A DNA stretch of 64,000 bases from Mobula hypostoma (taxonomy: Eukaryota): the NCBI RefSeq assembly GCF_963921235.1, contig NC_086107.1, forward strand, positions 105,030,001-105,094,000, given 5' to 3'. Position numbers and translations under genes: made by a program. The notes beneath the pieces are model-generated. The model made no database searches. It had not been told where the DNA came from and saw only the letters and a program-made list of their open reading frames with translations. Positions 1,556 to 40,632 of the stretch are shown in pieces (position 1 is the stretch's first letter; each line of letters starts with the position of its first letter).

Positions 1556-1557
1556 TC

Positions 1558-19002: not shown

Positions 19003-19812
19003 AGTCATAGTCATAGTCATAGTCATACTTTATTGATCCTGGGGGAAATTGGTTTTCATTACAGTTGCACCATAAATAATGCATAGTAATAGAACAATAA
19101 ATAGTTAAATAGTAATATGTAAATTATGCCAGTAAATTATGAAATAAGTTCAGGACCAGCCTATTGGCTCAGGGTGTCTGACCCTCCAAGGGAGGAGTTG
19201 TAAAGTTTGATGGCCACAGGCAGGAATGACTTCCTATGATGCTCTGTGCTGCATCTCGGTGGAATGAGTCTCTGGCTGAATGTACTCCTGTGCCCAACCA
19301 GTACATTATGTAGTGGATGGGAGACATTGACCAAGATGGCATGCAACTTGGACAGCATCCTCTTTTCAGACACCACCGTCAGAGAGTCCAGTTCCATCCC
19401 CACAACATCACTGGCCTTACGAATGAGTTTGTTGATTCTGTTGGTGTCTGCTACCCTCAGCCTGCTGCCCCAGCACACAACAGCAAACATGATAGCACTG
19501 GCCACCACAGACTCGTAGAACATCCTCAGCATCGTCCGGCAGATGTTAAAGGACCTCAGTCTCCTCAGGAAATAGAGACGGCTCTGACCCTTCTTGTAGA
19601 CAGCCTCAGTGTCCTTTGACCAGTCCAGTTTATTGTCAATTCCTATCCCCAGGTATTTGTAATCCTCCACCATGTCCACACTGACCCCCTGGATGGAAAC
19701 AGGGGTCACCGGTACCTTAGCTCTCCTCACGTCTACCACCAGCTCCTTAGTCTTTTTCACATTAAGCTGCAGTTAATTCTGCTCACACCATGTGACAAAG
19801 TTTCCTACCGTA
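19003..19812 (-). mobile_element. Rex1-like LINE 3' fragment
   Basis: 199-aa ORF KKTKELVVD...YKYLG...QSRLYFLRRLRSF; (TAGTCA)n tail. Confidence 0.9.
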
Positions 19813-20861: not shown

Positions 20862-23678
20862 ACAGCTATACAGATTGCCAGGTATGATGTTGTGGCCATC
20901 ACTGAATTGTGGCTGAAAGATGGTTGTAGTTGGGAGCTGAATCTCCAAGGTCACACATTGTACCAGAGGGATAGGAAGGTAGGCAGAGGGGGGAGGCGTG
21001 GCTTTACTGGTAAAGAATGGCATCGAATCAGTAGAAAGATGTGACATTGGATCAGAAGACGTTGAATCCTTGTGGGTTGAGTTAAGAAACTGCAAGGGTA
21101 AAAGGACCCTGAAGGCAGTTATATACAGGCCTCCCAACAGTGGCTGGGATGTGGACCACAGATTACAACAGGAAATAGAAAAGGCGTGTCAAAAGGGCAA
21201 TGTTATGATAGTCATATGGGAGATTTTAACATGCAGATCAATTGGGAAAATCAAGTTGATAATTGATCTCAAGAGAGTGAGTTATTGAATGCCTAAGAGA
21301 TAGATTTTTAGAGCAGTTTGTCATTGAGCCTACTAGGGGATCAGCTATACTGTACTGGGTGTAATGTAATAAACTGGAGGCAATTAGGGAGCTTAAGGTA
21401 AAAGAACCCTTTGGAACCAGTGATCACAATATGATGAGTTTAACTTGAAATTTGATAGGGAGAAGGTAAAGTCTGACGTAGCAGTATTTCAGTGGAGTAA
21501 GGGAAATCACAGTGGTATGAGAGAGGCGTTGGCCAAAGTAAATTGGAAGGAGATGCTGGTAGGGATGTCAGCAGAGCAGCAATGGTGTGAATTTCTGGGA
21601 AAAATGAGGAAGGTGCAGGACATGTGTGTTCCAAAAGTGAAGAAATACTCAAATGGTAAAATAGTACAACTATGGCTGACAGGGGAAGTCAAAGCTAATG
21701 TAAAAGCAAAAGAGAGGGCATACAACAAAGCAAAAATTAGTGGGAAGATAGAGAAGTTTTTAAAAACCGACAGAGAGCAACTAAAAGAATCATTAGAAGG
21801 GAAAAGATGAAATATGAAAGCAAGCTGGTAAATAATATCAAAGTGGATAGTAAAAGCTTTTTCAACTATGTAAAAAATAAAAGAGAAATGAGAGTGGATA
21901 CAGGACCGCTAGAAAATAAGGCGGGAGAAATAATAACGGGGGACATGGAGATGGCAGATTAACTAAATGAATATTTTGCTTCGGCCTTCACTGTGAAAGA
22001 CACTAGCAGTGTGCCAGATGTTGTAGTGTGTGAAGGAAGAGAAGTGGGTGTAGTTACTATTAGAAGGGAGAAGGTGCTCAAAAAGCTGAAAGATCTAAGG
22101 GTACATAAGTCGCCCGGATCAGATGAACTGCACCCTAGGGTTCTGAAACAGGTAGCATTAGCCATTGTGGCAGCATTAGAAATGATATTTCAAAAATCAT
22201 TGAACTCTGGCATGGTGCCAGAGGACTGGAAAATTGCAAATGTCACTCCACTCTTTAAGAAAGGAGGAAGGTAGCAGAAAAGAAATTATAGACCAGTTAG
22301 CCTGACCTCAGTAGTTAGAGTCAATTGCTAAGGATGAGGTGATGGAGTACTTGGTGACACAGGACAAGATAGGACAAAGTCAGCATGGTTTCCTTAAGGG
22401 AAAATCCTGTCTGATGAACCTGTTGAAATTATTTGAGGAGATTACAAGCAGGATAGATAAAGGGGATGCAGTGGGTGTCGAATATTTGGACTTTCAGAAG
22501 GCCTTTGACAAGGTGCCACACTTGAGACTGCTTACCAAGTTGAGAGCCTGTGGTATTACAGGAAAGTTTCTAGCATGGTTAGAGCATTGGCTGATTGGAA
22601 GAAGGCAGCAAGTGAGAATCAAAGGATCTTTGTCTGGTTGGTTGGTTGCCAGTGACTAGTGGTGTTCCATAGGGGTCGATTTTGGGACCACTTTTTTTAT
22701 GCTGTATGTAAATAATTTAGATGATGAATTATATGGCTTTGTAGCCAAGTTTGCAGATTATACGAAGATTGGTGGAGGGGCAGATACTGTTGAGGAAACG
22801 GGTAGGATGCAGAAGGACTTAAACAGATTAGGAGAATGGACAAGAAAGTGGCAAATGAAATATAATGTTGGAAAATGCATGGTCAGGCACTTTGGGAGTA
22901 TTAATAAATTAGCAGACTATTTTCTAAACTGGGAGAAAACCCAAAAATCTGAGATGCAAAGGGACTTGGGAATCCTTGTGCAGAACACCCTGAAGGTTAA
23001 CTTGCAGGTTGAGTTGGTGGTGAGGAAGGCAAATGCAGTGTTAGCGTTCATTTCAAGAGGTCTTGAATACAGGAGCAGGGATGTGACACTGAGGTTGTAT
23101 AAGACACTGGTGAGGCCTCACCTTGACTATTGTGAACAGTTTTGGGCTCCTCATCTTAGAAGAGATGTGCTGGCATTGGAGAGGGTCCAGGGGAGGTTCA
23201 CAAGGATGATTCCAGGAATGAAAGGGTTATCATATGAGGAACGTTTGATGGCTCTGGGTCTGTACTCACTGGAATTTAGAAGGATGAAGGGGGGATCTCA
23301 TTGAAACCTTTCAAATGTTGAAAGGCTTATAAAGAGGAGATGTAGAAAGGATGTTTCCCATGGTGGGAGAGTCTAGGACAAGAGGGCACAGCCTCAGGAT
23401 AGAGGGGCGTCCATTCAAACAGAGATGCAGGGAAATTTTTTTAGCCAGAGGGTGGTGAATTTGTGAAATTTGTTGCCACGTGCAACTGTGGAGGGCAGGT
23501 CGTTGGGTGTATTTAAGGCAGAGATTGATAGGTTCTTGATTGGACATGGCATCAAAGGTTACGGGGAGAAGGCTGGGAAATAGGGTTGAGGAGGAGAAAA
23601 AAAAAGGATCAGCCATGATTGAATAGCGGAGCAGACTCGATGGGCCAAATGCCCTAATTCTGCTCCTAAGTCTTATGG
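20862..23678 (+). mobile_element. CR1 LINE ORF2, decayed
   Basis: Fragmented EN and RT ORFs (YRPPN, SQHGF, LDFQKAFDKV, KFADY) and 3' UTR. Confidence 0.93.
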
Positions 23679-24169
23679 TCTTATACCGTACCTCATGCAA
23701 CAATGTAAACGTCTCAATAATTAATAGCCCCTTATCTTCTCCCTCCAATACAAACATAATTCCCTTTCCTATAGACGCACGAGCTGGGGGCATTACTGTT
23801 AAAAAAAAACTTTCCTCCGGGACACATCTCCACATTTCGGATGGGATTCCTTTGCCAAGGGTTCTCGTTACAGAAAGTTGAGAACGCGGCCTGTTTGGTA
23901 GGGCCGCAAACCCTCTGTACCCCGGGGGTTCACTACCCACTTATCCCACCCAGTTCCATTACTCAGGGATCAAATTCTCCGAGTCCGGCCCGAAACGTCG
24001 ACTGTTCACTCTTTTGCATAGACGCTGCCCGGCCTGCTGAGTTCCTCCGGCATTTTGTGTGCATTACTTTAATTTTCAGCTTCTGCAGATCTTTCTTGCC
24101 CTCTTGTTAATTCTCCGGGCTCAGTGCAGCCCTTGCTAAGACCCCCAAGTTACATTCGGTCCAGCAGCC

Positions 24170-24398
24170 CGAAGGGGAACTGACCCGCCTCCTGTTAGCG
24201 GAAGGACCGAGGCAACAGCTATTTATAGATACTGTGGCGGTTTCTCTGAAATCACTGGGAATTCCGAGATGCAGGTCACGCACTGTGATCTATGTCCTGT
24301 CCTGCTCACAGTGCTGCGCTCAGTCCCCTTTGGGCAACGTCCTCCTGGCAGGCTGAAGAGCCGAGAGTGATCGGAGATCGGCAGGGAATCGCCGCAAA
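24170..24398 (+). promoter_or_regulatory. Putative promoter/5'UTR of the Ig receptor gene
   Basis: CTATTTATAG (MEF2 consensus, TATA-like) 24219-24228; GGGAATTCC (NF-kB-like) 24257-24265; CGGAAG ETS core near 24199; unique CpG-containing sequence just upstream of the ATG. Confidence 0.5.
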
Positions 24399-24426
24399 AT
24401 GTTGCTCCTGGCTGTTTTATTAATTG
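24399..24426 (+). CDS. LRC-like Ig receptor, exon 1 (signal peptide part 1, MLLLAVLLI)
   Basis: gcaaaATG (A at -3), nine mostly hydrophobic codons, phase-1 consensus donor G|GTGAGT at 24427; CpG-rich upstream region. Confidence 0.85.
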
Positions 24427-25831
24427 GTGAGTATGTACACCTCCATCGATAACCTCGTCAAAGGCAAGTTCTCCCAGTGGCGAAGGGCACTCCTGTTAAA
24501 CCACTCTGAACGGATGACAATTCCCGAGACGCCAATAGTAAAAGTCGGGACAGGGAGTCGTCGCTTACTCTCTCTCGGCTCTACTGATGCCTGAGAGGTA
24601 TTTTATGGTCAAAGCACCCACGGGCCTCTCTCCGCAGTGTCACAGTTCTATAAGTGCCCTGGGACTGTTTAAAATGTATATGGTTTTCGCTGTCACTGAC
24701 ATTAGGTTAGTGTGGCTGATGTGTCCTATGCCCGTAATTCACTGATGGTGGAAATGAGTGTTACTCGTTTTGAGGAAGCGCTAGTGGGGGGGGGGGCAGT
24801 CATTAATCCCCATACGTCTGAGCGCAACAACACCAGCGTAGGGAACGAACGGGAACCCTTTTTACAGAAGCCCAGAAAGCGATTTTGTCCGCAAGTCGGA
24901 AAGCGCGCAAAATCACTCGATATAGTAACCACACCTCGACGGTGTTGCAACGAATGGCGCATGGGATTGATAAGAAAGCGCAATTAAGGACGTGCACTAA
25001 ACGCTGAGAGAGGAATTTAGCAGTAAACACGGGAAAATTTGCAGACGCTGGAAATCCAAAGCAACACACACAAAATGCTGGAGGAACTCAGCGGGTCGGG
25101 CAGCGCCTATGGAAAAGGGTAAACTTTGGGCGTCTCGATGAGGGATCCCGGCCCGAAACTTTTCCATAGATGCTGCCTGGCTTGATGCGTTTCTCCAGCA
25201 GTTTGTGGAAGTTAGTGGTGTTGTTCCCAGGGACGAGCGTGGATACATATACCGGGATGTCTGAATTTAATAACGTTCTAGTTCTTATGTCAGGGTGTCT
25301 GTAAATCGAGTGTTTGTAACCCGGGGATGGCCAGTACTTATAACGATGCAGAGAAGGGGACCCGTCGGGTTTATGAAGGCTTTCCACAGTTTACCCACGA
25401 GCCTCAACCACTCGCTGATTTTCCTGTAAGTTAATCTCTCTCGCACGTCTATCAGATCACTCTAAATCGTTCCACACACAAATGCACTAGGTGCAGGCAA
25501 ACCAGCACGGTTCAGGGGTGGGAAGAAACTGGAGCTCTCCGAGGGAAGACCAAACAGGTCACGGGGAGAACGTGTCAACTTCACACGCGCAGCACCCTAG
25601 GGTCCGGATGGAACCCGGGAGGCAGCGGTTCTGCTGTGTGCCTGTTATTGCCCATCTGGATGGGTTCACCCAGCCCCAGTTCCATCCTCATGAAGTGGTA
25701 GCAGGAAATGGATACTCTTCCCACTCCACCCTGATGTCGCTCAGGGATATTTTATTGTTCCACCCACCCCCATTCTCATCCACATGTTTCTCATTGGGAG
25801 TGCAACTTGAAAATACCTGCTCCAATACCTC

Positions 25832-26652
25832 TGTCATAAGGGGGGCGTTGGGAAGGGACCCAAGTGCAGGACACAGACACTGAAGTACTAGGAACAGGTC
25901 AAGGTTTATCAAGAAAGCAAGGGGAGTCAGGAAGAAACGAAGCTGGACATGGACGCGGGCCCTGGACGAGACAAGGACAGGACACTGGGCCTGGGCTAGG
26001 ACTAAGACTAGGAAAGCAGGAACTGGACAAGGAACTTGGAGCTAGGAGCCTGGGCTAGGACTCTGAGCCAGAGCCTGGACAGGGACTGGAAACCTGGGTC
26101 TTGACTCGGGCTCGGACCCTGGATCTAGGCGGGGACAAGACATGGCTACAGGACTGGACGTGGAACTCCCGCACATGGACAGGACGAGAACACAAAGCCT
26201 TGACTTGGACAGGTCGAGGTTCTTGGACTAGGCTTAGACAAGACGAGGTTCTTGGACATGGCCTGGACTAGATAAGGTACTTGGACATGGCCTGGACTGG
26301 ACGAGAGACTCCTGGACTGGACGAGGGAACTCCAGCACAGGACGTGGCTCTTGGACTAGGTTTGATTAGGCTCTTGGGTACGGAGCCGGGACCCTCCTTG
26401 GAGCGCAGGGCCGGGATGACTGCCGAGGTGACCGCCGTGGAAACTGTCAGGGATTCAGATGGGGAGGGGAAGGGAACAGTCCAGCCGGGGAATCCTTGGT
26501 TTGCAGAGATATTTATGTGCTAGCCCAAAACAAGAATCAGGTGCCTCAATTAAGGCACCCAATGGAACAAGGGAAAACAGGAAAACCCGGAATAAGGATC
26601 GATGAACCGGACCGTGAACTAGAACGTGGATTTCACGGACTGGACCATGACA
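25832..26652 (-). mobile_element. Solo LTR, Gypsy-like (copy A)
   Basis: TGTCAT...ATGACA termini; 5-bp TSD ACCTC (25827-25831, 26653-26657); internal short tandem repeats. Confidence 0.85.
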
Positions 26653-27430
26653 ACCTCCTAATATTCCTGGGAGTCACCCTATGCCAAGGATGTTCTTGTG
26701 AAGTTTTAGGAAGTTCTGCTGTTTTAATGCACATCCAGATAGTTGTTTTGAGTGCAATTAGCACTAAGTGCGGCTGTCCACACACTAATACGCGGCACAG
26801 TAGCGGTTATCCGCAACGCCTTACAACACCGGCAGTGAGACCGGTGGCTCAATTCCCGCCGGAGTTTACGCGTTCTTCCCGTCACCCGGTGGGTGCTCCA
26901 GTTTCCTCTTACATTCCAAAAGACGCATGGTTTAGGGTTGTAAGTTGTGGGCCTGCGGATGGGATCTGCAGTGAGGTCCAGGGGCCAGGAAGGCGATACT
27001 GCAAGGCTCCGTGGAGAGCGCGGGACATGACAGGGCACAGAAGACGTCGTGGTCATTCACTGTAACCAAGGAAGACTCCAGTTTGTGATGCTTGTTTGTA
27101 CCACTGGACACGGACTTCGGAGTTCGAGAGAGTGGAACCGCCCGCTCTTTAAAAACTCTCCCGCATAGGTTTCCCGTCATTGTCGGACAAGACGGACAAC
27201 CACCATTTTTAACTCGCTGGCGCGAAGCTTGGCGACACCACGGGCTGCCGCCGACATAATCCTCGGACTGTGTTGGTCGTTGATGCAAACGATGCATTTC
27301 GGTGTACTTGTGACAAATAAAGCTAATATTGATTTCATGTACTCATAACCCTGACAACATCTACATGAAATCTCTCTGCGTTGATACTTTTTTTTGTGAC
27401 TGAACTGTTCAGGTTTTTTTTTCATTACAG

Positions 27431-27466
27431 CCCGCGCGTCTGGATTCCGGGATGCCGGAAACAAAG
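27431..27466 (+). CDS. LRC-like Ig receptor, exon 2 (36-nt leader mini-exon, ARASGFRDAGNK)
   Basis: Acceptor tttttttttcattacag, donor AAG|GTCAGT, exactly 36 nt, phase 1-1, open in the frame joining exon 1 to the Ig exon. Confidence 0.8.
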
Positions 27467-27940
27467 GTCAGTGCCTGGATCTAAAAGGGTGAAGGAAGTA
27501 CAGTATCTGATAACTTTCTCTAACTCTAAAGTTACTGTTTCAGTTTGGGGCGCAGAACATCAGACTATGAGAGTCACGGTACAACTCTTAAAAACTTTGG
27601 TTAGGCCACAGTAGGAATATTGTGTTCGGTTCTGATGGGCAAAAGGTAGGATAATGTACTGCAGAGGGTGCCGGGGATACTTACTAGGATGTTGGCTGGG
27701 GTGGGATGTTTCAGGAGAGATTGGATTGTTTTCCTTAGAGCAGATGAGGCAGAGGGGGAAACTGATAACATGTTTCAGGAACATAGATGGGGTAGATAGT
27801 GAGAACTTCTCCTCGCGATGGAGGTACAGTATCTAGAACCAGAGTTTAAGCAGAGGAGTAAGAAAGGAAGAGCGGATCTAATGAAAATCTTACAATTCAC
27901 TTAAAATGATTTAATTATCCTTCTGTGTTTTTTTTTGAAG

Positions 27941-28228
27941 AAGCTCCTAAGCCCTCATTGCATGTGATTCAGTCATCATCTGGTTCAGCACTCGGAGACT
28001 CTGTTATATTCACATGCGTAGCTCCTGGACGGGCCCCACCCACACACTTCATGCTCTACAAAGAAGGCTCGGATCTGCGATTCATAAACGAAGTGGGAAA
28101 CAGTTCTAATGTGGCCTTTGAGATCCAAATTGTAACCGTCTATGATTCAGGCCTTTACTCCTGCCGGTATCAGATCTCCAAGTCTGTGGTGTCAAGCCAC
28201 AGTGATTATGTGCATCTGACCGTGACAG
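27941..28228 (+). CDS. LRC-like Ig receptor, exon 3 (C2-type Ig domain, 96 aa)
   Basis: EAPKPSL...GDSVIFTC...FMLYKEG...AFEI...DSGLYSCRY...SSHSDYVHLTVT; two Cys 49 residues apart; poly-T acceptor ending gaag; donor CAG|GTGAGT; phase 1-1. Confidence 0.92.
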
Positions 28229-28499
28229 GTGAGTCCTTCTCCTCAGGGACTGCTCTGACCAAGCTTAATGTAATCTCTGGGGGAACAATCTCATTCTTCA
28301 ACTGGATATATTACAGACATCTGGAAACAGCATTCAACAATTTCAGACCTATTATTGCTGCTCCAAACTGCAGATGGGTTGGAAGTAATTTATATTTATT
28401 ACTTGTTCGGTCATTTCATAGTGTAATACAGCAGGAAAACAGGCCCTTCAGCCCAACTAGTTCAATGCAAGTTTAATTGTCATTCAACCATACATGAAT

Positions 28500-31400
28500 A
28501 CAGGGATATTGGAAACTTGGTTCGGAAAAAGAGAGAGATCTACAATAAGTATAGGCAGCTTGGAGTAAATGAGGTGCTCAAGGAATATAAAGAATGTAAA
28601 AAGAATCTTAAGAAAGAAATTAGAAAAGCTAAAAGAAGGTATGATTTTGCTTTGGCAAGTAAGGTGAAAATAAATCCAAAGGGTTTCTACAGTTATATTA
28701 ATTGTCATGGTCCGGTCCGTGAAGTCTATTCCGGTTCACGGACCAGTCCATTGACCCTTGCTCCAGGTTTTCCTGTCTACCCTGTTTCTGTTCTTGCTGA
28801 GCTCTAACTGAGTCAGCTGATGCTCATTGGGGCTGGCTGCTTAAATGCCTTCAGAGAGCAGGGCGTAGCTGCTGGATTGTTCTTGTCCTTACTGCTTGTA
28901 TCCCTTCCTCTGCCTTCTGTTTCCTCGCCTGAAGCCTTGCCTTCTGTTGCCGGTAACTCTCGCCTCGCCTGAAGTTCTCATTTCGCCTTACATTGCCTGA
29001 AGCATTGCCTGGTCTTGCTGGTAACTCTCGCCTTGTCTCGCCTTCAGTCTTGTCCTGGAGCCACCCTGTACCTAGCTCCATTCCTGTCCCTTGCCTCCAT
29101 CGGGTAAGTTAGGCCGTATTGCCGTTACCTACAGTTGGTTCTGTCCCTTCCTGTCCCTTGCCTCCGTCGGGTAAGCCAGGCCATCCTGCCGTTACCTGCG
29201 GTTGGTTCTGTCCCTTCCTGGCCCTTGCCTCTGTCGGATGAAGAACCGCGCCCAGCCCAGGAGAACCGCGCCCTGCCCAGGGGAACCGTGCCCTGCCCAG
29301 CAGGAGCCTCCAGCCTCCTGCCTCCTGCCAAGCCTCACCTCAAGACTCTAGCCTCTAGCCTCAAGCCTGAAGACTCCAGCCTCCTGCCAAGCCTCGCCTC
29401 AAGCCTGAAGACTCCAGCCTCCTGCCTCCTGCCAAGCCTCGCCTCTAGTCTCTAGCCTCAAGCCTGAAGACTCCAGCCTCCTGCCTCCTGCCAAGCCTCG
29501 CCTCTAGTCTCTCACCTCAAGTCTCCAAGACTCCAGCCTCGTCCTACCTGCCAGCCAAGCCTCGTCCTTGCCTAGTTCTGGGGTCTGAGCCAGAGGCAAG
29601 ACCCAGGTACTGGGTCTTTGTCCAGTCTTTGGCTCGGAGTCCAAGCCCGGGCTCCTAGCTCTCTTGTCCGGTCCTGTTCCGGGTTCCCACTTTTCGTGTC
29701 CATGTCCTTGCCCTCACCCTGTATCCTAGTCCTGTCCCTAGTACTTCAGTGTCTGTGTCTTGCACTTGGAGCCATTCCCAGCCACCTCCTTATGACATTA
29801 ATAGCAAAAGGATAGTGAGGGATAAAATTGGTCCCTTAGAGAATCAGCGTGGACGGCTATATGCGGAGCCAAAAGAGATGGGGGAGATTTTGAACAATTT
29901 ATTTTCTTCAGTATTCACTAAGGAGAAGGATATTGAATTGTGTAAGGTAAAGGAAACAAGAAGGGTAGTTATGGAAAGTATGGCAATTAAAGAAGAGGAA
30001 GTACTGGCACTTTTAAGGAATATAAAAGTGGATAAGAGTCTCTGGGTCCTGACAGGATATTCCCTAGGAAGTCAGTGTGGAAATAGCAGGGGCTCTGACA
30101 GAAATATTTCAAATGTCATTAGAAACGGGGATGGCGCCAGAGGATTGGCGTATTGCTCATGTGGTTCCATTGTTTAAAAAGGGTTCTAAGAGTAAACCTA
30201 GCAATTATCGGCCTGTGAGTTTGATGTCAGTGATGGGTAAATTGATGGAAAGTATTCTTAGAGATGGTATATATAATTATCTGGATAGACAAGGTCTGAT
30301 TAGGAACAGTCAACATGGAGTTTTGCATGGAACGTCATGTTTGACAAATCTTATTGAATTTTTTGAAGAGGTTACCAGGAAAGTTGATGAGGGTAAAGCA
30401 GTGGATATTGTCTATATGGACTTCAGGAAGGTCTTTGACAAGGTTCCACAGGGAAGGTTAGTTAGGAAGGTTCAATCGTTAGGTATTAATATTGAAGTAG
30501 TAAAATAGATTCAGCAATGGCTGGATGGGAGACACCAGAGAGTAGTGGTGGATAACTGTTTGTCAGATTGGAGGCCGGTGACTAGTGGTGTGCCTCAGGG
30601 ATCTGTACTGGGTCCAATGTTGTTTGTCATATATATTAATGATCTGGATGATGGGGTGGTAAATTGAATTAGTAAGTATGCAGATGATACTAAGATAGGT
30701 GGAGTTGTGGATAAGAGTGGGCTGAAAGATGGCAGATGGAGTTTAATGCTGATAAATGTGAGGTGCTACATTTTGGTAGGACTAATCAAAATAGGACATA
30801 CATGGTAAATGGTAGGGCATTGAAGAATGCAGTAGAACAGAGGGATCTAGGAATAATGGTGCATAGTTCCCTGAAGGTGGAATCTCATGTGGATGGGCTG
30901 GTGAAGAAAGCTTTTGGTATGCTGGCCTTTATAAATCAGAGCAGTGAGTATAGGAGTTGGGATGTTATGGAGAGGTTGTATAAGACATTGGTAAGGCCAA
31001 ATTTGGAGTATTGTGTACAGTTCTGGTCACCGAATTATAGGAAAGATGTCAATAAAATTGAGAGATTATAGAGAAGATTTACTAGAATGTTACCTGGGTT
31101 TCATCTCCCAAGTTACAGAGAAAGGTTGAACAAGTTAGGTCTTTATTCTTTGGAGTGTAGAAGGTTGAGGGGGGACTTGGAAGAGGTATTTAACATTATG
31201 AGGGGGATAGATAGAGTTGATGTGGATAGGCCTTTTCCATTGAGAGTAGGGGAGATTCAAACAAGAGGACATGAGTTGAGAGTTAAAGGGCAAAAGTTTA
31301 GGGGTAACATGAGGGGGAACTTCTTTACTCAGAGAGTGGTGGCTGTGTGGAACGAGCCTCCAGCAGAAGTGGTTGGGGCAGGTTTGATGTTGTCGTTTAA

Positions 31401-31552
31401 AGTTAAATTGGATAGATATATGGACAGGAAAGGAATGGAGGGTTATGGGCTGAGTGCGGGTCGGTGGTACTAGGTGAGAGTAAGAGTTCAGCATGGACTA
31501 GAAGGGCCGAGATGGCCTGTTTCCATGCTGTAATTGTTAAATGGTTATATGG
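28500..31552 (+). mobile_element. CR1 LINE ORF2, decayed, in intron 3 of the Ig receptor gene
   Basis: Several RT-fragment ORFs (NYRPVSL, DFRKVFDKV, KYADD, RRLRGDL). Confidence 0.92.
28703..29797 (+). mobile_element. Solo LTR, same family (copy B), inserted in a CR1
   Basis: TGTCAT...ATGACA termini; 5-bp TSD TTAAT (28698-28702, 29798-29802); host CR1 frame resumes (FYSYIN|SKRIVRDK); tandem units ~29340-29560. Confidence 0.88.
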
Positions 31553-32811
31553 AATACAGCTAAATGAGACAGCATTATTCCTGGGTCAAGGTGCAAAACG
31601 CAATACCAACAGTCACACACAGCACAAAGAATGCACAAATAGTATCACAATCAAAACTCGTGCCATCAATCCACAGTCAACCAGAATAGAGCCCGTCTCC
31701 CTCCGAGTGAACATTGGGGGGCAGCACTGACCCCAGACTGGACGCTACACCACACTGCCCCCACCGCCACCCCGTGATGTGCATTGGCTTTGACACCCCG
31801 CAGCCCCAGGCGACACCACAGCCTGAGGCCCAGTCCTGTACATACAAGACAACAAGCACATATAGAATATCAGTAACATACAACAACACAGAATATACCT
31901 GTGTGTAGTCCAGCCGCCCACAGCCATGACATCCACAACATATTCCCGCTAGTCTCATGTTTAGCCCATAGCCCTCCTAGCACCTATCCAAATGCCTCTT
32001 AAATGTTTCAATTGACCACTTCCTCTGGCAGCTCATTCCAGGTATTCACCACCCTCTGTGTAAAGAAGTTGCCTCTTAGGTCTCTTAAATCTCTCCCCTC
32101 TTGGATCTGTGCCCTCTAGTTTTGGGCTCCCCAAACTTGGGGGAAAAGACTATGACTGTCTACCTTATCCATATCCTTCATAAGCTTCCATAAGTTGTTC
32201 TACCTCATTCTCCTGTCCTCCAGGGAATGAAGATCCAGCGAGGAAAAACCCTCCTTATAACCCAAATCCTGAAGTTCAGGTTGCATCCTCACAAATCTCT
32301 TCTGCACCCTCTACAGCTTGGCAATGTCTTTCACAATAGCAGGGTGATGGAAATTGTCAAAGTGTGGCCTGACCCACAACTATTTTAACTGCAACATAAT
32401 GTCCCTAATCCCCAACTTGATAATATAACTATCATTACCAGTTGAAGTCTCTTGTACTGATTGCAATGGACACTTTCCCATTGGTTCTGTGTTTATTGAG
32501 ATACAGCATGGAATGGGCCCTTCCAACCCTTCGAGCCGTGTCACCCCAGCAACCACCAGTTTAACCCTAGCCTAATCACAGGCCAGTTTACAACGGCCAA
32601 TTAACTTACCAACTGGATTGTCTTTGGACAGCAACCTCTGATTTAAGCCCAGACCCCCTACATCTTTGGCCCATGGGACCCGGGAGAAACCCACACTGTC
32701 ATGGGGAGAATGTACAAACTCCTTACAGATGGCTGCAGCAATTGTACCCAGGTTTCTGGTACCGTAAAACATTGAACTAACCTTGTTGCCCCAATATTCT
32801 CTCCTCAATCG

Positions 32812-33118
32812 TATAGGCATCCGTTAGTCTCATGAGACCATGGATTTGCGCCTTGGAAGGTTTCCAGGCCACAGGCCTGGGCAAGGTTGTATGGAAGACT
32901 GGCAGTTGCCCATGCTGCAAGTCTCCCCTCTCCATGCCACTGATGTTGTCCAAGGGAAGGGCATTAGGGCCGATACAGCTTGGCACCGGTGTCGTCGCAG
33001 AGCAATGTGTGGTTAAGTACCTTGCTCAAGGACACAACATGCTGCCTCAGCTGAGGCTCGAACTCACGACCTTCAGATCACTGGACTGATGCCTTAACCA
33101 CTTGGCCACGCGCCAACA
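32812..33118 (-). mobile_element. tRNA-derived SINE (inverted sister copy 35181-35490, +)
   Basis: A-box TGGCCAAGTGG and B-box GTTCGAGC; the two copies align over ~300 bp. Confidence 0.8.
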
Positions 33119-33768
33119 CACCCTCAATCATAATGAAGAAAAATTAAATTGCTTGTTGGCAATGATTCTTACAGATTTACACTCACCTCTGCTGTCATTG
33201 TTGGCTCTTGCCATTCACACCTCCTCTGGAGCTGGCCTCTGTTTCCTTACATGTCCTTTGCACCATCTTCTCTAATGTAATTTCATCACTCCTCCCTTCC
33301 ACCCTAACAATGACCTTCCCATCGAAAAAACTTTTCTCCTCCTTGTCACCTATCAACCTTCCCTGTCTCAATACTTGTCATGCCTCTAATTATAGTATAT
33401 CTCTGATATATTTGTGTTCTGGATAATAGTCACTAACCTGGTCATATATTTGTGTTCTGAATATAGGTCATTAACCTGGAATAATAACCCCATTTCTCTC
33501 ACTCTATAGACGCTACCCGACCTACTGAGTGTTTCCAACAGTTTCTGTTTTATTTCAGTTTTCCAGCACCCTCCCAGTATCTTGCTGGCCTGCGGAGTTC
33601 ATTTTTGCCCCTGTATGCTGGATTGGGAATGATAGAATGCTTGTAAACTGAAATCTGTTTGCTGTAATTTCTGAAATAATGGATTCTATATCATGGAATT
33701 GGCCGCAACTCACTGCAAACTCAGCAGAGGCTGTATGAGATGAAAGGCTGGCTTGAGCAGGTAACTCA

Positions 33769-33965
33769 GGCTACGTCCACACTAGACCGGATAAATCCAT
33801 AACCAAAGTTTTTTCTCTTCGTTTTGACCCTCCGTCCACACTGAAATGGCGTTTTCCTCCCCCGAAAATGGAGCTTTTCTAAAACACTCTCCAGAGTGTT
33901 TAAATCTGAAAACGCTGGTTGGGCATTATAGTGTGTATGGGGTAACCGGAGGTTTTAAAAAACCT
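33769..33965. mobile_element. Possible Harbinger-type DNA transposon end
   Basis: Begins GGCTACGTCCACACTA, resembling fish Harbinger TIRs; the second end is not seen. Confidence 0.4.
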
Positions 33966-36900
33966 GTCGTCCCTTTCATTGGTGAAGAGACTATGGCTGT
34001 AGGAAATGTTTCCAGGATGACCCCTCTGTGGGAGTGGGGAAGATGTTGGTGAGGCCACCCGGGGGTCTGTGCGTCCGTATGTGTAGCTATTGTAGTGGCT
34101 GTGAGGCTGGTATTGTGGCGGAAACGTACTGGGGGGGAGCCATCATATTCAGTATATATTCATATGCAGTACCCACGATCTGGGTTCAATTCCCACCACT
34201 GCCTGTAAGAAGTTTGTACGTTCTTTCACGTGGATTTCCTCCAGGTGCTCCAGTTTCCTCCCACAGTCCAAAGACCTACCAATTGGTAGGTTAGTTGGTC
34301 ATTGTAAATTGTTCCGTGATTAGGCGAGGATTAAATCGGGGGATTGCTGGGCAGTGCGGCTGGAAAGGCCAGAAGGGCCTGTTCCGTTTCCCCATAAATA
34401 AATAAACAAACAAACAAAAACAAACGGAAAAGGATGGAATTAATCTCTGATCTAACTCACTTGGGAGAGCCTGATTGGATCATAAAAGCAATACAGGGTC
34501 CAGCAGTGAAATGCAACAATTCACATCAGTCAGGGGGAGAAAGAATCCCATTCTTGTTTTAACACCTCCATGTGTGTTAGCTTTCAGAGATTCTAGAGAG
34601 CATTAAATATGCCGGTAGAAAAGTTAACTGGCTGCATCTGATTCCACAGCTCAGCTGTGTGATCAATTAGAACTAACAGGCTTCTTTGAGAACAGCATGC
34701 ACTTCCATTGTGTCTTTCACCAGCTCAGGATGTTCCATAGAGTTAGACACCCCGTGAAACACTTCTGTCACTGCAGTACTGTAATCGTTTCCAGACCATG
34801 ACCTGGATTGTTTAAAGCTGCCAACCCTATAATCGTGGCTCGATTGAAAGCAGAGACACGAGACTCTGCAGCTGCTGGAATCAAGAGTAAATCAAAAAGT
34901 GGAGAGAGTGAGAGAGAACTGGAGAGAGTGAGTAATTTCAAGTTCCTGGATGTTAATATCTCTGATGATCTATCCTGGTCCCAATATATCGATGCAGCTA
35001 TAAAGAAGACAAGACAGTGGCTGTATTTCATTAACCACATAACCACATAACAGTTACAGCACGGAAACAGGCCATCTTGGCCCTTCTAGTTCGTGCCGAA
35101 CTCTTACTCTCACCTAGTCCCACTGACTTGCACTCAGCCCATAACCCTCCATTCCTTTCCTGTCCACATATCTATCTACATGTGGGCACGTGGCCAAGTG
35201 GTTAAGGCATTGGACTAGTGACCTGAAGGTCGTGAGTTCGAGCTCCAGCCGAGGGAACGTGTTGTGTCCTTGAGCAAGGCACTTAATCACACATTGCTCA
35301 GTGACGACACTGGTGCCAAGCTGTATGGGTCCTAATGCCCTTCCCTTGGACAACATTGGTATCGTGGAGAGGGGAGACTTGCAGCATGGGCAACTGCCGG
35401 TCTTCCATACAACCTTGCCCAGGCCTGTGCCCTGGAGAGTGAAGACTTTCCAGGTGCAGATCTATGGTCTCACAAGACTAACGGATGCCTTTATTTTGAA
35501 CTATCCAATTTAACTTTAAACGACAACATCGAACCTGCCTCAACCACTTCTGCTGGAAGCTCATTCCACACAGCTACCACTCTCTGAGTAAAGAAGTTCC
35601 CCCTCGTTTTACCCCTAAACTTTTGCCCTTTAACTCTCAACTCACGTCCTCTTGTTTGAATCTCCCCCACTCTCAATGGAAAAAGCCTATCCACGTCAAC
35701 TCTATCTATCCCCCTCATAATTTTAAATACCTCTATCAAGTCCTCCCTCAACCTTCTATGCTCCAAAGAATAAAGACCCAAATGCTGCCCGACCGGTTCC
35801 TCCAGCAATGTGGCATTTTTCGAATCAGAATCAGGTTTAATATCACTGGCAATTAAGAGCTTGAGGAGTCTTGGTATATCACCAAAGACACTCGCAAGTT
35901 TCTACAGATGTGTTATGGAGAGCATTCTAATTGGCTGCATCACTCTCTGGTTTGGGGAGTAGTAGGCTGCAGAGTTATAAAATCAGTCAGCTCCATTATG
36001 GACACTAGCCTCCGTAGTATCCAGGACATCTTCAAGGAGCAGTTCCTCTTCCATCATTAAGGACCTTCATCACCTAGAACATGCACTCTTCTCTTTGCTA
36101 CCATCAGGAAGGAGGTACAGACGCCTGAGAGCTCACACTCAACGACTCAGAAACAACTTCTTCCCCTCTGCCATCCGATTTCCGAATGGACATTCAACCC
36201 ATGATCACCTACTTTTTTAAAATTTCTATTTTTGCACTACTTATTTAATTATTTAATATACATATACTTTCTGCAATTCACAGTATGAAATAATCTATTA
36301 CTGGGTATTGCATTGTACTGCTGCCGCAAAGTCAACCGATTTCACAGCACATGCCAGTGATATTAAATCTGATTCTGATTCTGAAAGATGCCACGTTGCT
36401 GGAGGAACTTAAGGGGTCAGGCAGCATCTGCAGGGGGAAATAGGTAGTTAATGTTTCCCTTCATCTGGACTGAGAGGTAGGGGGAGAAAACCAGCAAAGA
36501 GGTGAGGGTTTGAGGTGGAGGAGGGGCTGGTAAGTGATAGGTGCATCCAGGTGAGGAGGGGTAAAGGCAGCTGGAGGAAGGGAGAGTGAAACTAGCATCA
36601 GTGGCCGGAAGGTGATGGGTGGAGGCAACCAAAGGGCTGCAAATGATGGAATTGGGCAGCAAAGGAAGGTGGAGCATGGAACCAAATAAGAGAGGTGGGA
36701 ACAGTAGGAGAAGGGGTTCCAGTGGGATTCAGTCGATGATGGGCAGACGGAGTGGGTAGAGAAGGGGAATGAGATGGTGCTGGGTGACTGGGAGTGGGTG
36801 TCGGAAGAACTGGGTGGATCGGGTGGGGAGAATATAGACATAGGGGAATCAGCTGGCCTGAAACTGGACATTTGAAAGCATTTTCACCTCTGAGCTACTT

Positions 36901-37571
36901 GAGTCTACCTGCACTATAGGGCTGGCCTAACATCTCACAAGAATGCCGAGGGAACTCTGCATTACCGGAGGTGTTATCATGTAGGAAATGCTGAGAGAAG
37001 TCCAGGAAATCTTTACTGCTGGTCAAAGTTGGCCTGGAAGATCACACAGAAGTGGGGTCACAAATGTGTTGGCGCCAATTTCTGGGGAATCAAGATGAGA
37101 CATTAACCCCTAGAAAAGCAGGATGTGCTACAAATACCCAGCAGGTCAGGCAGCATCTTCAGAGAAAGAGAAAAATATATTGTTTAAGCTTGGTGAATTT
37201 TCATCAGAACTGGAAAATTTTATAATGTAGATATTGGTCTGGGTGAAAGATAATGCTTTGGGGAGAACAGATTGGAGTTACAATTAAATATCAGAAGGTC
37301 ACAAATTTTCTCTGTAGTCTTTGGGATTTTCCAGTTTTTATTCTTGGGCATAACAACAATGATTACTCAATAATTAGTTTTTTTTGTAGAGCTCTTGACG
37401 TTTGATAAGGATCAGAGACTAAGAAAAATAATTGCCTCTTTTTTTTCTTGAAATTGCAAGAAATTTGCCTTGCAAATCTGAATAAAGATTAAATTATTAA
37501 CAGTGAATATTTTCTGTGGATGTTGCTTTTTTGTTCTGAAAGTTAATTATGTCCTTATTTCTCTCCATTAG

Positions 37572-37720
37572 AAATGCTCTGGCCAATAGCAGTGAGCGTT
37601 CGACTGATGATTGTGTTTATCCTACACATAGTTGTCCTCATTACCTGGATATTATATCCTGACTATGGGGAAGATTCAAAGAAATACAAGGCAGAGATGG
37701 CAGTACAAGAAAATGTATAA
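37572..37720 (+). CDS. LRC-like Ig receptor, exon 4 (TM with Arg, short cytoplasmic tail, stop)
   Basis: Acceptor ttatttctctccattag; phase-1 frame reads EMLWPIAVSVRLMIVFILHIVVLITWILYPDYGEDSKKYKAEMAVQENV*; the four exons total 501 nt = 166 aa + stop. Confidence 0.8.
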
Positions 37721-38514
37721 TGTTCACAGATAATTTTAAAATGAATGAATGAATTATTAAATCCCTTAGTATGCTTTTCCAGTCTCTAGCTCTTCGGGCC
37801 AGAGTGCATTGAGCTCCAAGGTTTTTACAGCACTTGAACTGGTTAATTGTTGCTTAACGAGAGTCGTTAGTCATTTAGAGTTTCTTGTGTTTTTCTCGAG
37901 CGACTCGTTCTTTGTAATGCGGTCTCTTGGTGCTTTTCATTTAAACTGCTGGGTTTATTTGGCTTGGGGATTCCGTGTTACTTGTGTTATGTAAGCAGAC
38001 GCCCAATTAGTGCTAATCGCAGGGTCCTAGTTTTGAGAATGTTGCTTCTCACGGTGTTGCTTGGCCGAGCCATCGAGGTTCTGTTGGAATTATTATTGAA
38101 TAAAATCTGGTTGCCCTCTCTACATCAGAATCTGTCGTTTGTTCACACTTGGGTTCTGATACTGCCAGAGCACATCGTGATACACATGGCAACTAAGCAC
38201 AAATTGTTCAAAGACATTGCAATGCTTGTTCATGGGAACATCTTTAATTTTAATTAGAGGGTTGGCTGGTGCTATGTGAACAAGCCCCAATACTAGACAC
38301 TTGCCAGTAGCCTCTCCAATACAACTGCTTCTTCGGCCTAATAGGACCAAGAAATTGTCATTACTCAACTGTCATGTTATAGACACCATTAAAATTAAAT
38401 TATGTTAATTTATATCTGTGAAAACTTAAGACAAGTACAGTATACTCAGTTATCATTGCCTATTATAGAGCCATAGAAAAGTACAGCACAGAAACAGGCC
38501 CTTTGGCCCATCTA

Positions 38515-40632
38515 AGGGGAGTAAGGGGTGACCGTAGATGACAAGGGAAGTCAAGAACAGTATAAAAATAAAAGAGAGGAAGTATAACATAGCAACGATG
38601 AGCAGGAAGCCAGAGGATTGGGAGACTTTTAAGGAGCAACAGAAGATAACTAAAAAGACAATACGGGGGGAAAAGATGAGGTACAAAGGTAAGCTAGCCA
38701 AGAATATAAAGGAGGACAGTGAAAGCTTCTTTAGGCATGTGAAAAGGAAAAAATTAGTTAAGACCACAGTAGGGCCCTTAAAGACAGAAACGGTTGAAAT
38801 TATTATGGGGAACAAGGAAATGGCAGACGAGCTGAACAGGTACTTTGGAATTGTCTTCACTAGGGAAGACACAAACAATCTCCTAGATGTAATAGTGTCC
38901 AGAGGACCTAGGGTAACGGAGGAACTGAAGGAAATTCGCATTAGGCAGAAAATGGTGTTGGGTAAACTGATGCGACTGAAGGCTGATAAGTCCTCAGGAC
39001 CTGATGGTCTGCATCCCAGGGTACTTAAGGAGGTGGCTCTAGAAATCGTGGACGCATTGGTAATCATTTTCCAATGTTCTATAGATTCAGGATCAGTTCC
39101 TGCGGATTGGAGGGTAGCTAATGTTATCCCACTTTTTAAGAAAGGAGGGAGAGAGAAAACAGGCAATTATAGACCAGTTAGTCTGACATCAGTGGTGGGG
39201 AAGTTGCTGGAGTCAATTATAAAAGATGTAATAGCGGCATATTTGGATAGCAGTAGCAGGATAGGTCCGAGTCAGCATGGATTTACAAAGGGGAAATCAT
39301 GCTTGACTAATCTTCTGGAATTTTTTGAGGATGTAACTATGAAAATGGACATGGGAAAGCCAGTGGATGTAGTGTACCTGGACTTTCAGAAAGCCTTTGA
39401 TAAGGTCCCACGTAGGAGGTTAGTGGGCAAAATGGCACATGGTATTGGGGATGAGGTACTGACATGGATAGAAAATTGGTTGGCAGACAGGAAACAAAGA
39501 GTAGGGATTAACGGGACCTTTTCAGAATGTCAGGCAGTGACCAGTGGGGTGCCACAAGGCTCGGTGCTGGGATCGCAGCTATTTACAATATACATTAATG
39601 ATTTAGATGAAGGGATTAAAAATAACATTAGCAAATTTGCAGATGACACAAAGCTGGGTGGCAGTGTGAAATGTGAGGAGGATGTTATGAGAATGCAGGG
39701 TGACTTGGGACAGGTGGGGTGAGCGGGCAGATGCATGGCAGATACAGTTTAATGTGGATAAATGTGAGGTTATCCACTTTGGTGGCAAGAACGGGAAAGC
39801 AGATTACTATCTGAATGGTGTCAAGTTAGGAAAAGGGGAAGTACAATGAGATCTGGGTGTCCTTGTTCATCAGTCACTGAAAGTAAGCATGCAGGTACAG
39901 CCGGCAGTGAAGAAAGCTAATGGCATGTTGGCCTTCATAATAAGGGGAGTTGAGTATAGGAGCAAAGAGGTCCTTCTGCAGTTGTACAAGGCTCTGGTGA
40001 GACCCCACCTGGAGTATTGTGTGCAGTTTTGGTCTCCAAATTTGAGGAAGGACATTCTTGCTATGGACGGAGTACAGCGCAGGTTCACTGGTTTAATTCC
40101 AGGGATGGCGAGAATGTCATATGTTGAAAGATTGGAGCGATTGGGCTTGTATACACTGGAATTTAGAAGGATGAGAGGGGATCTGATTGAAACATATAAG
40201 ATTATTAAGGGATTGGACACACTAGAGGCAGGAAACATGTTCCGGATGTTGGGTGGGGGGGGGGGGTCCAGAACTAGAGGCCACAGTTTAAGAATAAGGG
40301 GTAGACCATTTAGAATGGAGTTGAGGAAAAACTTTTTCACACAGAGGGTTGTGGATCTGTGGAATGCTTTGCCTCAGAAGGCAGTGGAGGCCAATTCTCT
40401 GGATTCTTTCAAGAAAGAGTTAGATAGAGCTCTTAAAGAAAACCAATTTCCCCCGGGATCAATAAAGTATGACTATGACTATGACTAAAGATAGCGGAGT
40501 GAAGGGATATGGGAAGAAGGCAGGAACAGGGTACTGATTGTGGATGATCAGCCATGATCACAGTGAATGGCAGGGCTGGCTCAATGGGCCGAATGGCCTG
40601 TTCCTGCATCTATTGTCTATTGTCTATTATCT
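38515..40632 (+). mobile_element. CR1 LINE 3' part (RT)
   Basis: 394-aa and 199-aa ORF pieces with RT motifs; ctattgt tail. Confidence 0.94.

Follow-up and report, generated by a model that had tools for sequence, protein, structure and literature searches.

A transcribed single-domain immunoglobulin receptor gene of the ray Mobula hypostoma and its relatives in cartilaginous fishes

Results

Gene structure and predicted protein

A 64-kb stretch of the Mobula hypostoma genome (the window; C45:105030001-105094000 in the 3.48-Gb genome searched) carries a spliced gene whose product is a small type I membrane protein bearing one immunoglobulin (Ig) domain. The window, whose own numbering is used for all positions given without a contig name, has a G+C content of 44.8% and a CpG observed/expected ratio of 0.40. 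The parts of the gene, with its alternative exons, are as follows.

24399..24426, plus strand: coding part of exon 1; ATG, the nine leader codons after it and base 1 of codon 10, with a GTGAGT donor
25294..25425, plus strand: putative cassette exon inside intron 1; 132 nucleotides (nt), AG acceptor and GTAAGT donor, in contigs of the sequencing runs X2 and X3 described below
27431..27466, plus strand: exon 2; a 36-nt mini-exon flanked by phase 1 introns that encodes the latter half of the signal peptide
27941..28228, plus strand: exon 3; 288 nt, single C2-type Ig domain (residues 22-117)
34724..34740, plus strand: candidate alternative last exon inside intron 3; 17 nt, good acceptor, AQDVP and a stop, from a pattern scan
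37572..37720, plus strand: coding part of exon 4; membrane helix, tail of 20 residues and TAA stop
37721..38116, plus strand: 3' untranslated region; AATAAA at 38099-38104, contigs stop at 38116

Joined, the four exons give 501 nt, or 166 codons and TAA, with an open reading frame and all introns in phase 1. GT donors follow exons 1-3, and exons 2, 3 and 4 are each preceded by a pyrimidine-rich tract and AG; in a tblastn search the Mobula birostris protein matches 27421-27465, overlapping exon 2. An earlier note on this DNA, made from its letters alone, had proposed four GT-AG exons with phase 1 introns for a type I protein of 166 residues, and every element of that model was reproduced from the sequence.

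A split leader is followed in the product by one Ig domain and a membrane helix, and the short tail carries neither an immunoreceptor tyrosine-based inhibitory motif (ITIM) nor an activation motif (ITAM). Four motifs had led the earlier note to describe it as a receptor of the leukocyte receptor complex (LRC) type, namely PKPSL, F-x-L-x-K-E-G, D-x-G-x-Y-x-C-x-Y and S-x-x-S-D, and all are present in the product: PKPSL at residue 24, FMLYKEG at 58, DSGLYSCRY at 90 and SSHSDYVHLTV at 106. The Ig cysteines are Cys47 and Cys96, and there is one N-glycosylation site of the N-x-S type, N75. The predicted membrane helix spans about residues 121-145 and contains Arg128 and His136, while the 20-residue tail carries no YxxL/I motif in a pattern scan; the proposed single C2 domain, membrane segment and tail of about 20 residues are thus intact. 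Against Pfam the Ig exon matches Ig_2 (E 4.8e-12), Ig_3 (E 3e-9) and Ig_C19orf38 (PF17737; 25.8 bits, cut-off 23.2).

Transcripts and splice forms

Eleven public runs contain the Ig exon, and contigs of four of them (X1-X4) were placed on window positions 23000-40000. X1-X3 are runs of the window's own organism and X4 is a run of a relative. Contigs bridge exon 3 and exon 4 in all four runs, and so in two species, joining 28226 to 37570; this is the predicted joint 28228/37572, because 28227-28228 and 37570-37571 both read AG. Exon 3 contains no other letters in record 1 of X1, record 9 of X2 and record 17 of X3, and the same bridge in record 22 of X4, from the second organism, has 8 and 11 other letters. 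The genome holds one copy of the Ig exon at 100% identity, and since this sole copy keeps its introns the joined form must come from spliced RNA; a retrocopy is ruled out as the origin of the spliced contigs. At the 3' end, record 17 of X3 spans 37570-38116 and record 14 of X2 spans 37919-38116, both ending 12 nt beyond AATAAA.

Contigs of X2, X3 and X4 are placed from 27938, three nucleotides ('aag') ahead of exon 3, and a three-letter overlap is expected there because exon 2 ends in AAAG and the intron reads gaag. Those of X2 and X3 start 36 nt before exon 3 (33 unplaced and 3 placed letters), which is the length of exon 2, and are indirectly consistent with exon 2 being joined to exon 3. 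Exon 1 rests on the identity of the 22 leader residues to those of the Mobula birostris RefSeq model, on depth in the bin 24134-24700 in three of the four runs (X2, X3 and X4, with 0 in X1) and on a good donor. Taken together, these data confirm that the gene is real, intact, spliced and transcribed.

Three further features may reflect alternative splicing. In X2 and X3, contigs of 192 nt are placed at 25293-25425 and flanked by 29 and 30 unplaced letters, as would be produced by a k=31 assembly-graph bubble around a cassette exon between exons 1 and 2 (30 + 132 + 30); such a bubble would also explain why exon 2 begins exactly where the main contigs do. Translated on from exon 1, the cassette gives a stop after three codons, and its inclusion would therefore be non-productive or regulatory. 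Exon 3 has a tandem AAG|AAG acceptor, and isoform X2 of Mobula birostris is one residue shorter at that joint, so that the tandem acceptor could yield the 165-residue form seen in that species. Finally, the AQDVP-plus-stop exon at 34724-34740 encodes the exact C-terminus of isoform X3 of Mobula birostris (122 residues), and because this exon is conserved a secreted, Ig-only form of 122 residues appears possible in the window species.

A receptor family of rays, skates, sharks and chimaeras

A scan of 1.84 billion representative proteins returned 749 matches at E ≤ 0.001, and additional word-index searches for relatives gave 2, 1 and 21 proteins. The second-best match is a protein of 165 residues with 94% identity over the Ig exon. 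In Mobula birostris, RefSeq models an 'uncharacterized protein' with isoforms X1 (166 residues), X2 (165 residues) and X3 (122 residues), the last of which stops after the Ig domain. With isoform X1 the window product has every residue of the leader (22/22) and of the membrane segment (29/29) in common, along with 94% of the Ig domain and 95% of the tail. Other orthologues with one Ig domain are an 'immunoglobulin superfamily member 1-like' protein of the stingray Hemitrygon akajei (166 residues, 84% identity), an 'uncharacterized protein' of the skate Rhinoraja longicauda (169 residues, 59% identity) and an unnamed protein of 169 residues.

The more distant relatives include proteins with two Ig domains. 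The sawshark Pristiophorus japonicus has a 'Fc receptor-like protein 1' of 248 residues, and the elephant shark Callorhinchus milii has 'IGSF1-like' proteins of 254 and 315 residues, a 'Fc receptor-like protein 2', an 'Ig-like domain-containing protein' and two short fragments; the three NCBI models among the Callorhinchus proteins sit on one 17.9-Mb contig. Two Callorhinchus proteins carry Lys in the membrane segment and one has an uncharged segment. The uncharged paralogue (315 residues) has nearly the same Ig domains, the second scoring 121.7 bits, and a longer tail with Y-A-I-I. By analogy with known receptor families, we read these charged and uncharged forms as a paired activating and inhibitory set.

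Judged by these sequence relationships, the window gene is the one-domain ray and skate member of a receptor family shared by rays, skates, sharks and chimaeras. The inference of the earlier note that the DNA came from a cartilaginous fish agrees with the nearest proteins, which are from rays, a skate, a sawshark and the elephant shark, and orthologues of the kind it suggested looking for in this group exist as one-domain forms in stingray and skate, with two-domain relatives in sawshark and elephant shark. It had left open whether an automated annotation existed. Sister species do have one, under the names 'uncharacterized protein', 'IGSF1-like', 'Fc receptor-like 1' and 'Fc receptor-like 2', so the automatic names waver between the LRC type and the Fc receptor (FcR) type. 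Because these predictions are already in public annotation, what is new here is recognition and characterisation of the gene, not discovery of its sequence. A literature search, with subscription journals outside its scope, found no published description of this family or of LRC- or FcR-like genes in cartilaginous fishes.

The membrane segment and candidate adaptors

The membrane segment of the family follows the motif W-(P/S)-x-A-V-(G/S)-x-(R/K/Q)-L, with L-H seven residues on, which places a conserved His eight residues below the charged position. Conservation here is unusually high, with the consensus W-P-x-A-V-G-x-(R/K)-L-x-V-x-x-x-L-H. Eight of 153 proteins scanned carry the motif, and each of the eight belongs to the family. 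Six of these have Arg at the charged position (two Mobula isoforms, Rhinoraja, two unnamed proteins and Pristiophorus), Callorhinchus has Lys and Hemitrygon has Gln, so that a basic residue is found in 7/8 sequences, or 8/9 counting the window's own Arg. The segment is 72% identical to that of the skate sequences, as against 57-59% for the Ig domain, and 13/26 and 12/26 positions are identical to sawshark and chimaera, respectively. Many proteins among the matches bear the NxxR motif of LRC receptors, and with these the window segment has only an (I/V)-R-(L/M) core in common.

Two membrane exons of the TCR_zetazeta family, each with an Asp in the helix, were found in the genome in a Pfam profile search.

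C18:39281968-39282051, minus strand: TCR_zetazeta membrane exon, 59.5 bits
C52:1479181-1479267, minus strand: TCR_zetazeta membrane exon, 56.6 bits

Of the mammalian chains, the C18 exon looks like CD3ζ and the C52 exon like FcRγ. A charged membrane residue together with a short tail marks the activating LRC and FcR receptors that pair with FcRγ or DAP12 (PMC6557307, PMC2413239). The NxxR membrane segment is described as the most conserved LRC element, and NxxR and DYT as marks of the LRC and XFL receptors that associate with FcRγ (PMC6557307); since activating KIRs also have no NxxR (PMC6557307), the motif does not define the whole LRC family. The window product combines a basic residue in its membrane helix with a short tail free of ITIM and ITAM. 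Because LRC and FcR-like receptors with this combination act in that way, adaptor-coupled activation is, by analogy, its most likely mode of action.

Placement of the immunoglobulin domain

In phmmer searches against the PDB no single domain scored higher than that of chicken CHIR-AB1, with 38.1 bits over residues 2-95. FCRL5 is the top whole-chain match, its best single domain scoring 18.4 bits; it heads the list only because nine domains are summed. A family profile (A2) built from six family domains gave, in the PDB, 39.7 bits for CHIR-AB1, 34.9 for LAIR1, 25.6 for domain 1 (D1) of PirB and 24.5 for FCRL5 D7. Outside the PDB the same profile scored 40.4 bits on Myotis OSCAR D1, 39.9 on marsupial LILR-like domains, about 39 on turtle LRC-like domains and at best 35.3 on primate IGSF1. 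Frog FcR-like domains reached 22-26 bits, and domains of FcγRIIb and FcγRIII 11.5-21 bits (Pteropus FcγRIIb D1 20.7, D2 11.5). The best-scoring domain outside the family is, however, frog PECAM1 D5 (44.3 and 54.0 bits), which is 29-35% identical to the family domain. The domain of a sturgeon 'HIDE1-like' protein scored 46.6 bits.

Structure prediction had been suggested in the earlier note, and folds were compared with an AlphaFold model of the Mobula orthologue built from 8 sequences, and LRC chains rank first for this model. In Foldseek all 14 rows listed among ranks 1-17 are LRC chains (found were LILRB4, LILRA5, LAIR1, CHIR-AB1, PirB, KIR2DL3, OSCAR and LILRB1), and the first non-LRC chain stands at rank 19. 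In VIA-align the model superposes on LRC chains at ranks 1-45, with Z 14.7-12.8 and a root-mean-square deviation of 1.4-2.1 Å over 88-94 residues; FcγRIII first appears at ranks 46-47 with Z 12.7, so the gap between LRC and FcγR is small, about 1-2 Z units. Altogether 48 of the 50 VIA-align rows listed are LRC-family chains (Z 12.6-14.7 over 86-97 residues). The structures compared included no solved PECAM1 D5, and for that reason the fold ranking could not test a relationship to the FcR/PECAM group.

For phylogenetic analysis, 111 of 132 domain envelopes from 31 named proteins were kept, each with at least 65 profile positions and at least 71 residues. A quick tree placed the family's membrane-proximal domain weakly (SH-like approximate likelihood ratio 79) with PECAM1 D5/D6 and Mustelus domains 4-6. 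A more careful tree (LG+C20) was calculated from 85 rows after removal of 26 near-duplicates, comprising repeats from Dissostichus, Dermochelys, Chelonoidis, Pelodiscus, Mauremys, Engystomops, Ictalurus, Elgaria and Heptranchias proteins, as well as the unnamed 169-residue protein and one Callorhinchus row. Here the six family rows group together (support 98/87) and stand beside PECAM1 D3/D5/D6, domains 4-6 of Mustelus 'FCRL3', a six-domain protein with ITIMs, and frog FcR-like domains (88/73). An approximately unbiased (AU) test did not reject the grouping of the family with 35 amniote LRC rows as one clade (p 0.40, ΔlnL 4.0). In a third set of 80 rows, 18 domains were added (from sheep A1BG, bat OSCAR, FcγRIIb, FcγRIII, catfish, bowfin and two Callorhinchus proteins) and Heptranchias, Dissostichus and 15 further rows were dropped. 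In that tree the family lies outside the amniote LRC clade (98/93), in an unresolved assemblage of 47 rows (77/54).

Exon structure gives one further character. A 36-bp second leader exon, the length of exon 2 here, is probably typical of LRC genes; the literature search gave no supporting passage. The coding parts of the two leader exons measure 28 and 36 nt, and do not follow the 30/21-bp rule of mammalian FCRL1-6, FcγRI and FCRLB and of a fraction of Xenopus genes (PMC2413239).

The Ig domain is thus a secure member of the superfamily of LRC, FcR/FCRL and PECAM-1 domains, and in its modelled fold it comes closest to LRC domains. By these data it may have arisen from the LRC branch, from the FcR/PECAM branch or from one older than both.

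Comparison with known receptors

With CHIR-AB1, LAIR1, OSCAR, LILRA, NKp46, GPVI and FcαRI the window protein has in common a C2 Ig domain, type I topology, a basic membrane residue and a short tail. The domain begins with P-K-P-S-L and ends with C-x-Y ... S-D-x-V-x-L-x-V, as LRC domains do. It differs from LRC receptors in having neither NxxR nor DYT, in lying outside the amniote LRC clade and in being flanked by HEBP1 and WBP11, and the gene is part of no Ig cluster in the 64-kb window or the 200 kb downstream. The FcR, FCRL and PECAM-1 group is approached through the comparable or higher score of PECAM1 D5, the weak sister position in one careful tree, and the N-terminal half of the domain, which resembles FCRL5 D7 and PECAM1 D5. 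Differences from that group are the leader exons (28+36 against 30/21), one domain instead of 2-9 and no match to Pfam Ig_C17orf99; moreover, single domains of FcγR and FCRL5 score below those of LRC proteins.

HIDE1 (C19orf38) is a one-Ig type I protein, and its Pfam family Ig_C19orf38 matches, besides the window domain, the two-Ig family members at 31.7-52.3 bits. In contrast, the ray and skate orthologues give 21.7 bits, 22.3 bits, none and none (cut-off 23.2). Equally good or better matches to this Pfam family come from A1BG-like proteins of frog, LILR-like proteins of marsupials and multi-domain receptors of sharks, and hence it does not single out HIDE1. The comparison covers 'HIDE1-like' and 'IGSF1-like' proteins of sturgeon and coelacanth; the sturgeon protein differs in having an uncharged membrane segment and a tail of 82 residues.

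Teleost LITRs and the XFL and LRC-like receptors of Xenopus are paired activating and inhibitory families whose domains lie between the FcR and LRC types (PMC2413239, PMC6557307). The charged and uncharged membrane forms of the Callorhinchus relatives resemble this arrangement, but LITR and XFL receptors have NxxR and form large clusters, whereas the present family is small, with a single locus in this ray genome and its own membrane motif with His.

Discussion

Nature, origin and mode of action of the receptor

The reading that we favour, at a probability of about 0.6, is that the gene encodes a functional, transcribed, small type I receptor of a chondrichthyan family, with a domain of the LRC/FcR-FCRL/PECAM-1 superfamily whose branch we leave undecided, and that it is likely to be adaptor-coupled. 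The ectodomain would bind a ligand, and the buried Arg would pair with an Asp in a disulfide-linked adaptor that bears an ITAM, for instance the FcRγ-like chain of this genome. Pairing would then produce an activating signal as in LILRA, OSCAR and CHIR-A receptors, and a secreted, Ig-only splice form could serve as a decoy. Several points weigh against this reading. The run type of all 11 runs is given as 'RNA? (a guess)' or '?', none being recorded as RNA, and part of the transcripts contain the stop-bearing cassette exon. Of the three junctions that the earlier note had proposed to check, 28228/37572 is seen in all four runs and 27466/27941 indirectly, but 24426/27431 is in none of the contig pieces listed for these runs. 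The same three points could be taken to mean that the gene is an artefact or dead, a set of exons from unrelated transcripts joined by eye; that idea is close to refuted by the exon 3-exon 4 contigs in four of four runs and two species, by a reading frame uninterrupted across four exons and by a complete 166-residue architecture conserved in three other batoids, and we give it almost no credence. In the membrane segment, Hemitrygon akajei has Gln at the Arg/Lys position, and the charge is therefore not universally kept. The Gln could be a real loss of charge, an allele or a matter of sequencing or annotation. The window segment also has no NxxR, reading W-P-I-A-V-S-V-R-L with Val at -3, and no DYT motif ahead of it. 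The structural model, built from few sequences, has a mean predicted local distance difference test (pLDDT) score of 75 (about 85 in the Ig domain; helix 121-145), and AlphaFold may lean towards the well-represented LRC structures. Lastly, although the anatomy, the conservation of charge and the candidate adaptors are observed, the pairing, the direction of signalling and any ligand are what we infer.

Other readings concern descent and function. A true LRC-lineage receptor, sharing its ancestral gene with the LILR, KIR, OSCAR and CHIR of tetrapods and so dating the LRC to the jawed-vertebrate ancestor, is a possibility that we entertain tentatively. It draws on the LRC chains at all listed Foldseek ranks 1-17 and at VIA-align ranks 1-45, on CHIR-AB1 as best single-domain PDB match and the lead of OSCAR D1 over FcγRIIb D1 (40.4 against 20.7 bits), on C-x-Y and S-D-x-V-x-L-x-V in the C-terminal half of the domain, on the start of CNOT3 about 184 kb downstream, on a 36-nt second leader exon that fits the presumed LRC length and is at odds with the FcR 30/21-bp rule (PMC2413239) and on an AU test that does not reject it (p 0.40). 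Yet the amniote LRC clade (98/93) leaves the family out, the 85-row tree puts it beside the PECAM1/FcR-like cluster (88/73), and frog PECAM1 D5 at 44.3 and 54.0 bits outscores every other domain outside the family; the membrane segment has no NxxR, the direct neighbours are HEBP1 and WBP11, PRPF31, TMC and tRNA_int_endo genes lie on another contig, which also holds all further Ig matches, themselves weak, and the Z gap to FcγR is a mere 1-2 units or so. The label 'LRC-type' of the earlier note is accordingly supported in part: fold rank, the CHIR-AB1 and OSCAR scores, the lead of LRC domains over FcγR and FCRL5 and the presence of CNOT3 speak for it, and the PECAM1 D5 score, the trees, the missing NxxR and the neighbours speak against it. 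Descent within the FcR, FCRL and PECAM-1 lineage, which would make the protein a small FcR-like receptor and not an LRC relative, we regard as unlikely. The sister position to PECAM1 D3/D5/D6, Mustelus and frog FcR-like domains (88/73), the 44-54 bits and 29-35% identity of PECAM1 D5, FCRL5 as top whole-chain PDB match, the NCBI names 'Fc receptor-like 1' and 'Fc receptor-like 2' of two relatives, and the motif C-x-A-P-G-x-x-P-P-x-x-F, common in alignments to the N-terminal half of this domain, FCRL5 D7 and PECAM1 D5, all fit it. Set against these are support of 88/73, below a strong level, and its loss in a polytomy when rows for OSCAR, A1BG and FcγR join the set, the 18.4-24.5 bits of the best FCRL5 domain and 11.5-21 bits of FcγRIIb and FcγRIII domains, leader exons of 28+36 nt, and Pfam Ig_C17orf99, which scores 68.7 bits on PECAM1 D5 and misses the window domain while Ig_C19orf38 matches it; the fold ranking had no solved PECAM1 D5 structure to offer on this point. 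As to function, the polar membrane residues might serve oligomerisation, retention or regulated shedding, the protein being an adhesion or decoy molecule or a receptor subunit without adaptor signalling. Gln for Arg in Hemitrygon, a segment unlike the NxxR type known to bind FcRγ, the secreted isoform modelled in Mobula birostris with its exon conserved in the window, and a tail that is 95% conserved across three ray species and could have its own role would suit this, but R/K in 7/8 motif-bearing family sequences from chimaera to rays, the short tail free of ITIM and ITAM, the charged and uncharged Callorhinchus forms typical of activating/inhibitory pairs, and the Asp-bearing adaptor exons in the genome make it rather improbable.

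Implications

According to a 2014 survey, shark genomes have no LRC-type, FcR/FCRL or FcRγ homologues, and the origin of these genes was placed in bony fish (PMC4016189). A 2019 study of the LRC traced the family only to amphibians and left fish open (PMC6557307). Small Ig receptors that belong to this superfamily and have a charged membrane anchor occur in rays, skates, sharks and chimaeras, and in rays they are expressed; an FcRγ-like membrane exon is present in this ray genome, whereas the 2014 report had none in sharks, and the elephant shark has both charged and uncharged forms. The origin of the paired-receptor and ITAM-adaptor design would then lie as early as the jawed-vertebrate ancestor, irrespective of the branch to which the domain belongs. 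The earlier note had argued that an intact LRC-type member would push these receptors back towards that ancestor; a receptor of the superfamily is indeed present, but this is no proof for the LRC proper. As a single-copy, one-domain receptor, the protein would be a simple object for ligand hunting in elasmobranch immunology.

A bolder and, in our estimate, improbable proposal is that the family is a chondrichthyan survivor of the stock that gave rise to both LRC and FcR/PECAM receptors. With the FcRγ-like chain it would form an activating receptor whose conserved ligand might be shark immunoglobulin, in the manner of CHIR-AB1 and IgY, and the segment would link a 12p-type HEBP1/WBP11 block to CNOT3. 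Were this true, cartilaginous fishes would have an Fc-receptor system, which the literature says they lack.

Genomic setting

On the plus strand the order of genes is HEBP1, the receptor gene, WBP11, an exon of CCDC113/CCDC96 type and CNOT3.

C45:104986772-104987026 (L028:6772-7026), plus strand: HEBP1 last exon, 67 kb upstream of the receptor ATG; Pfam SOUL, 51.7 bits
55992-63592 of the window, plus strand: WBP11 exons, starting about 18 kb past the poly(A) site
C45:105251830-105271547 (including L021:7830-8120 and L023:7290-7574), plus strand, the same as the receptor: CNOT3, about 184 kb downstream; Pfam Not3, five exon matches

Against the PDB the HEBP1 exon scores 76.9 bits on HEBP1 and 26 on HEBP2. 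The open reading frame (ORF) 55992-56228 matches WBP11 in PDB entry 7abf_X, residues 63-130 (E 4.4e-32); the proline-rich ORFs 58235-58498, 59527-59817 and 63263-63592 look by eye like later WBP11 exons. The WBP11 exon gave no usable match in the protein-database search, and a genome search with Pfam Wbp11 found only a stop-ridden copy on C59. That copy (C59:33286711-33286935, minus strand) holds an uninterrupted Wbp11 N-terminal domain with four in-frame TGA codons, and is probably a processed WBP11 pseudogene.

CNOT3 is counted among the LRC genes (PMC10206138). By a rough estimate, the chance of meeting one of the four LRC-linked families tested within 250 kb is well under 1%. Of the others, a Prp31_C (PRPF31) gene and a TMC gene lie 25 kb apart at C80:34.606-34.638 Mb, and a tRNA_int_endo gene lies at C80:19.05 Mb; a genome search for Ribosomal_S4 (RPS9) found nothing, which is no evidence of its absence. 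In human, PRPF31 and a TMC gene are neighbours of CNOT3, and HEBP1 and WBP11 map to 12p13-p12. With PRPF31 and TMC on C80 and HEBP1 and WBP11 being 12p genes in human, the receptor locus cannot simply be equated with the human LRC, and as a counterpart the C80 region is no weaker a candidate.

Searches of the 64-kb window and of the 200 kb downstream gave no second family exon, of either the Ig or the membrane type, and a second family member in the window, considered as a candidate, was dropped as no further exon matched. Four other Ig matches in the genome are 30-36% identical to the window domain, all at C80:17.89-18.31 Mb. These exons are 57-63% identical to large multi-domain proteins among the matches and resemble shark multi-domain receptors. 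They lie within about 0.75 Mb of the tRNA_int_endo gene and may be the ray's multigene LRC-like cluster.

Pfam searches were made with ORFs that are unique within the DNA examined. Those of 150 of the 154 such ORFs of at least 88 residues in the 200 kb downstream found only CCDC113/96, transposon domains and Not3, and those of 102 ORFs from 50 kb upstream plus 12 window ORFs found SOUL, SCAN/zf-CCHC and RNase_H; both searches miss short exons. Seven window ORFs had no Pfam match. Candidate reverse-transcriptase ORFs of the long interspersed nuclear element (LINE) type lie in the window at 13237-15855 (minus), 38538-40488 (plus), 19161-19772 (minus) and 60480-61247 (minus), the largest of 872 residues, and many shorter LINE-like ORF fragments accompany them, some in intron 3 of the receptor gene at about 28.4-31.5 kb and 35.1-35.9 kb. 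The flanks hold further remains of mobile elements at L028:2201-2887 (minus), L016:247-660 and 1226-1564 (plus), L016:7963-8283 (minus) and L030:6045-6746 (minus), of the SCAN plus zinc-knuckle (Gag-like), Sleeping Beauty-type helix-turn-helix plus DDE_3, CENP-B_N and RNase H types.

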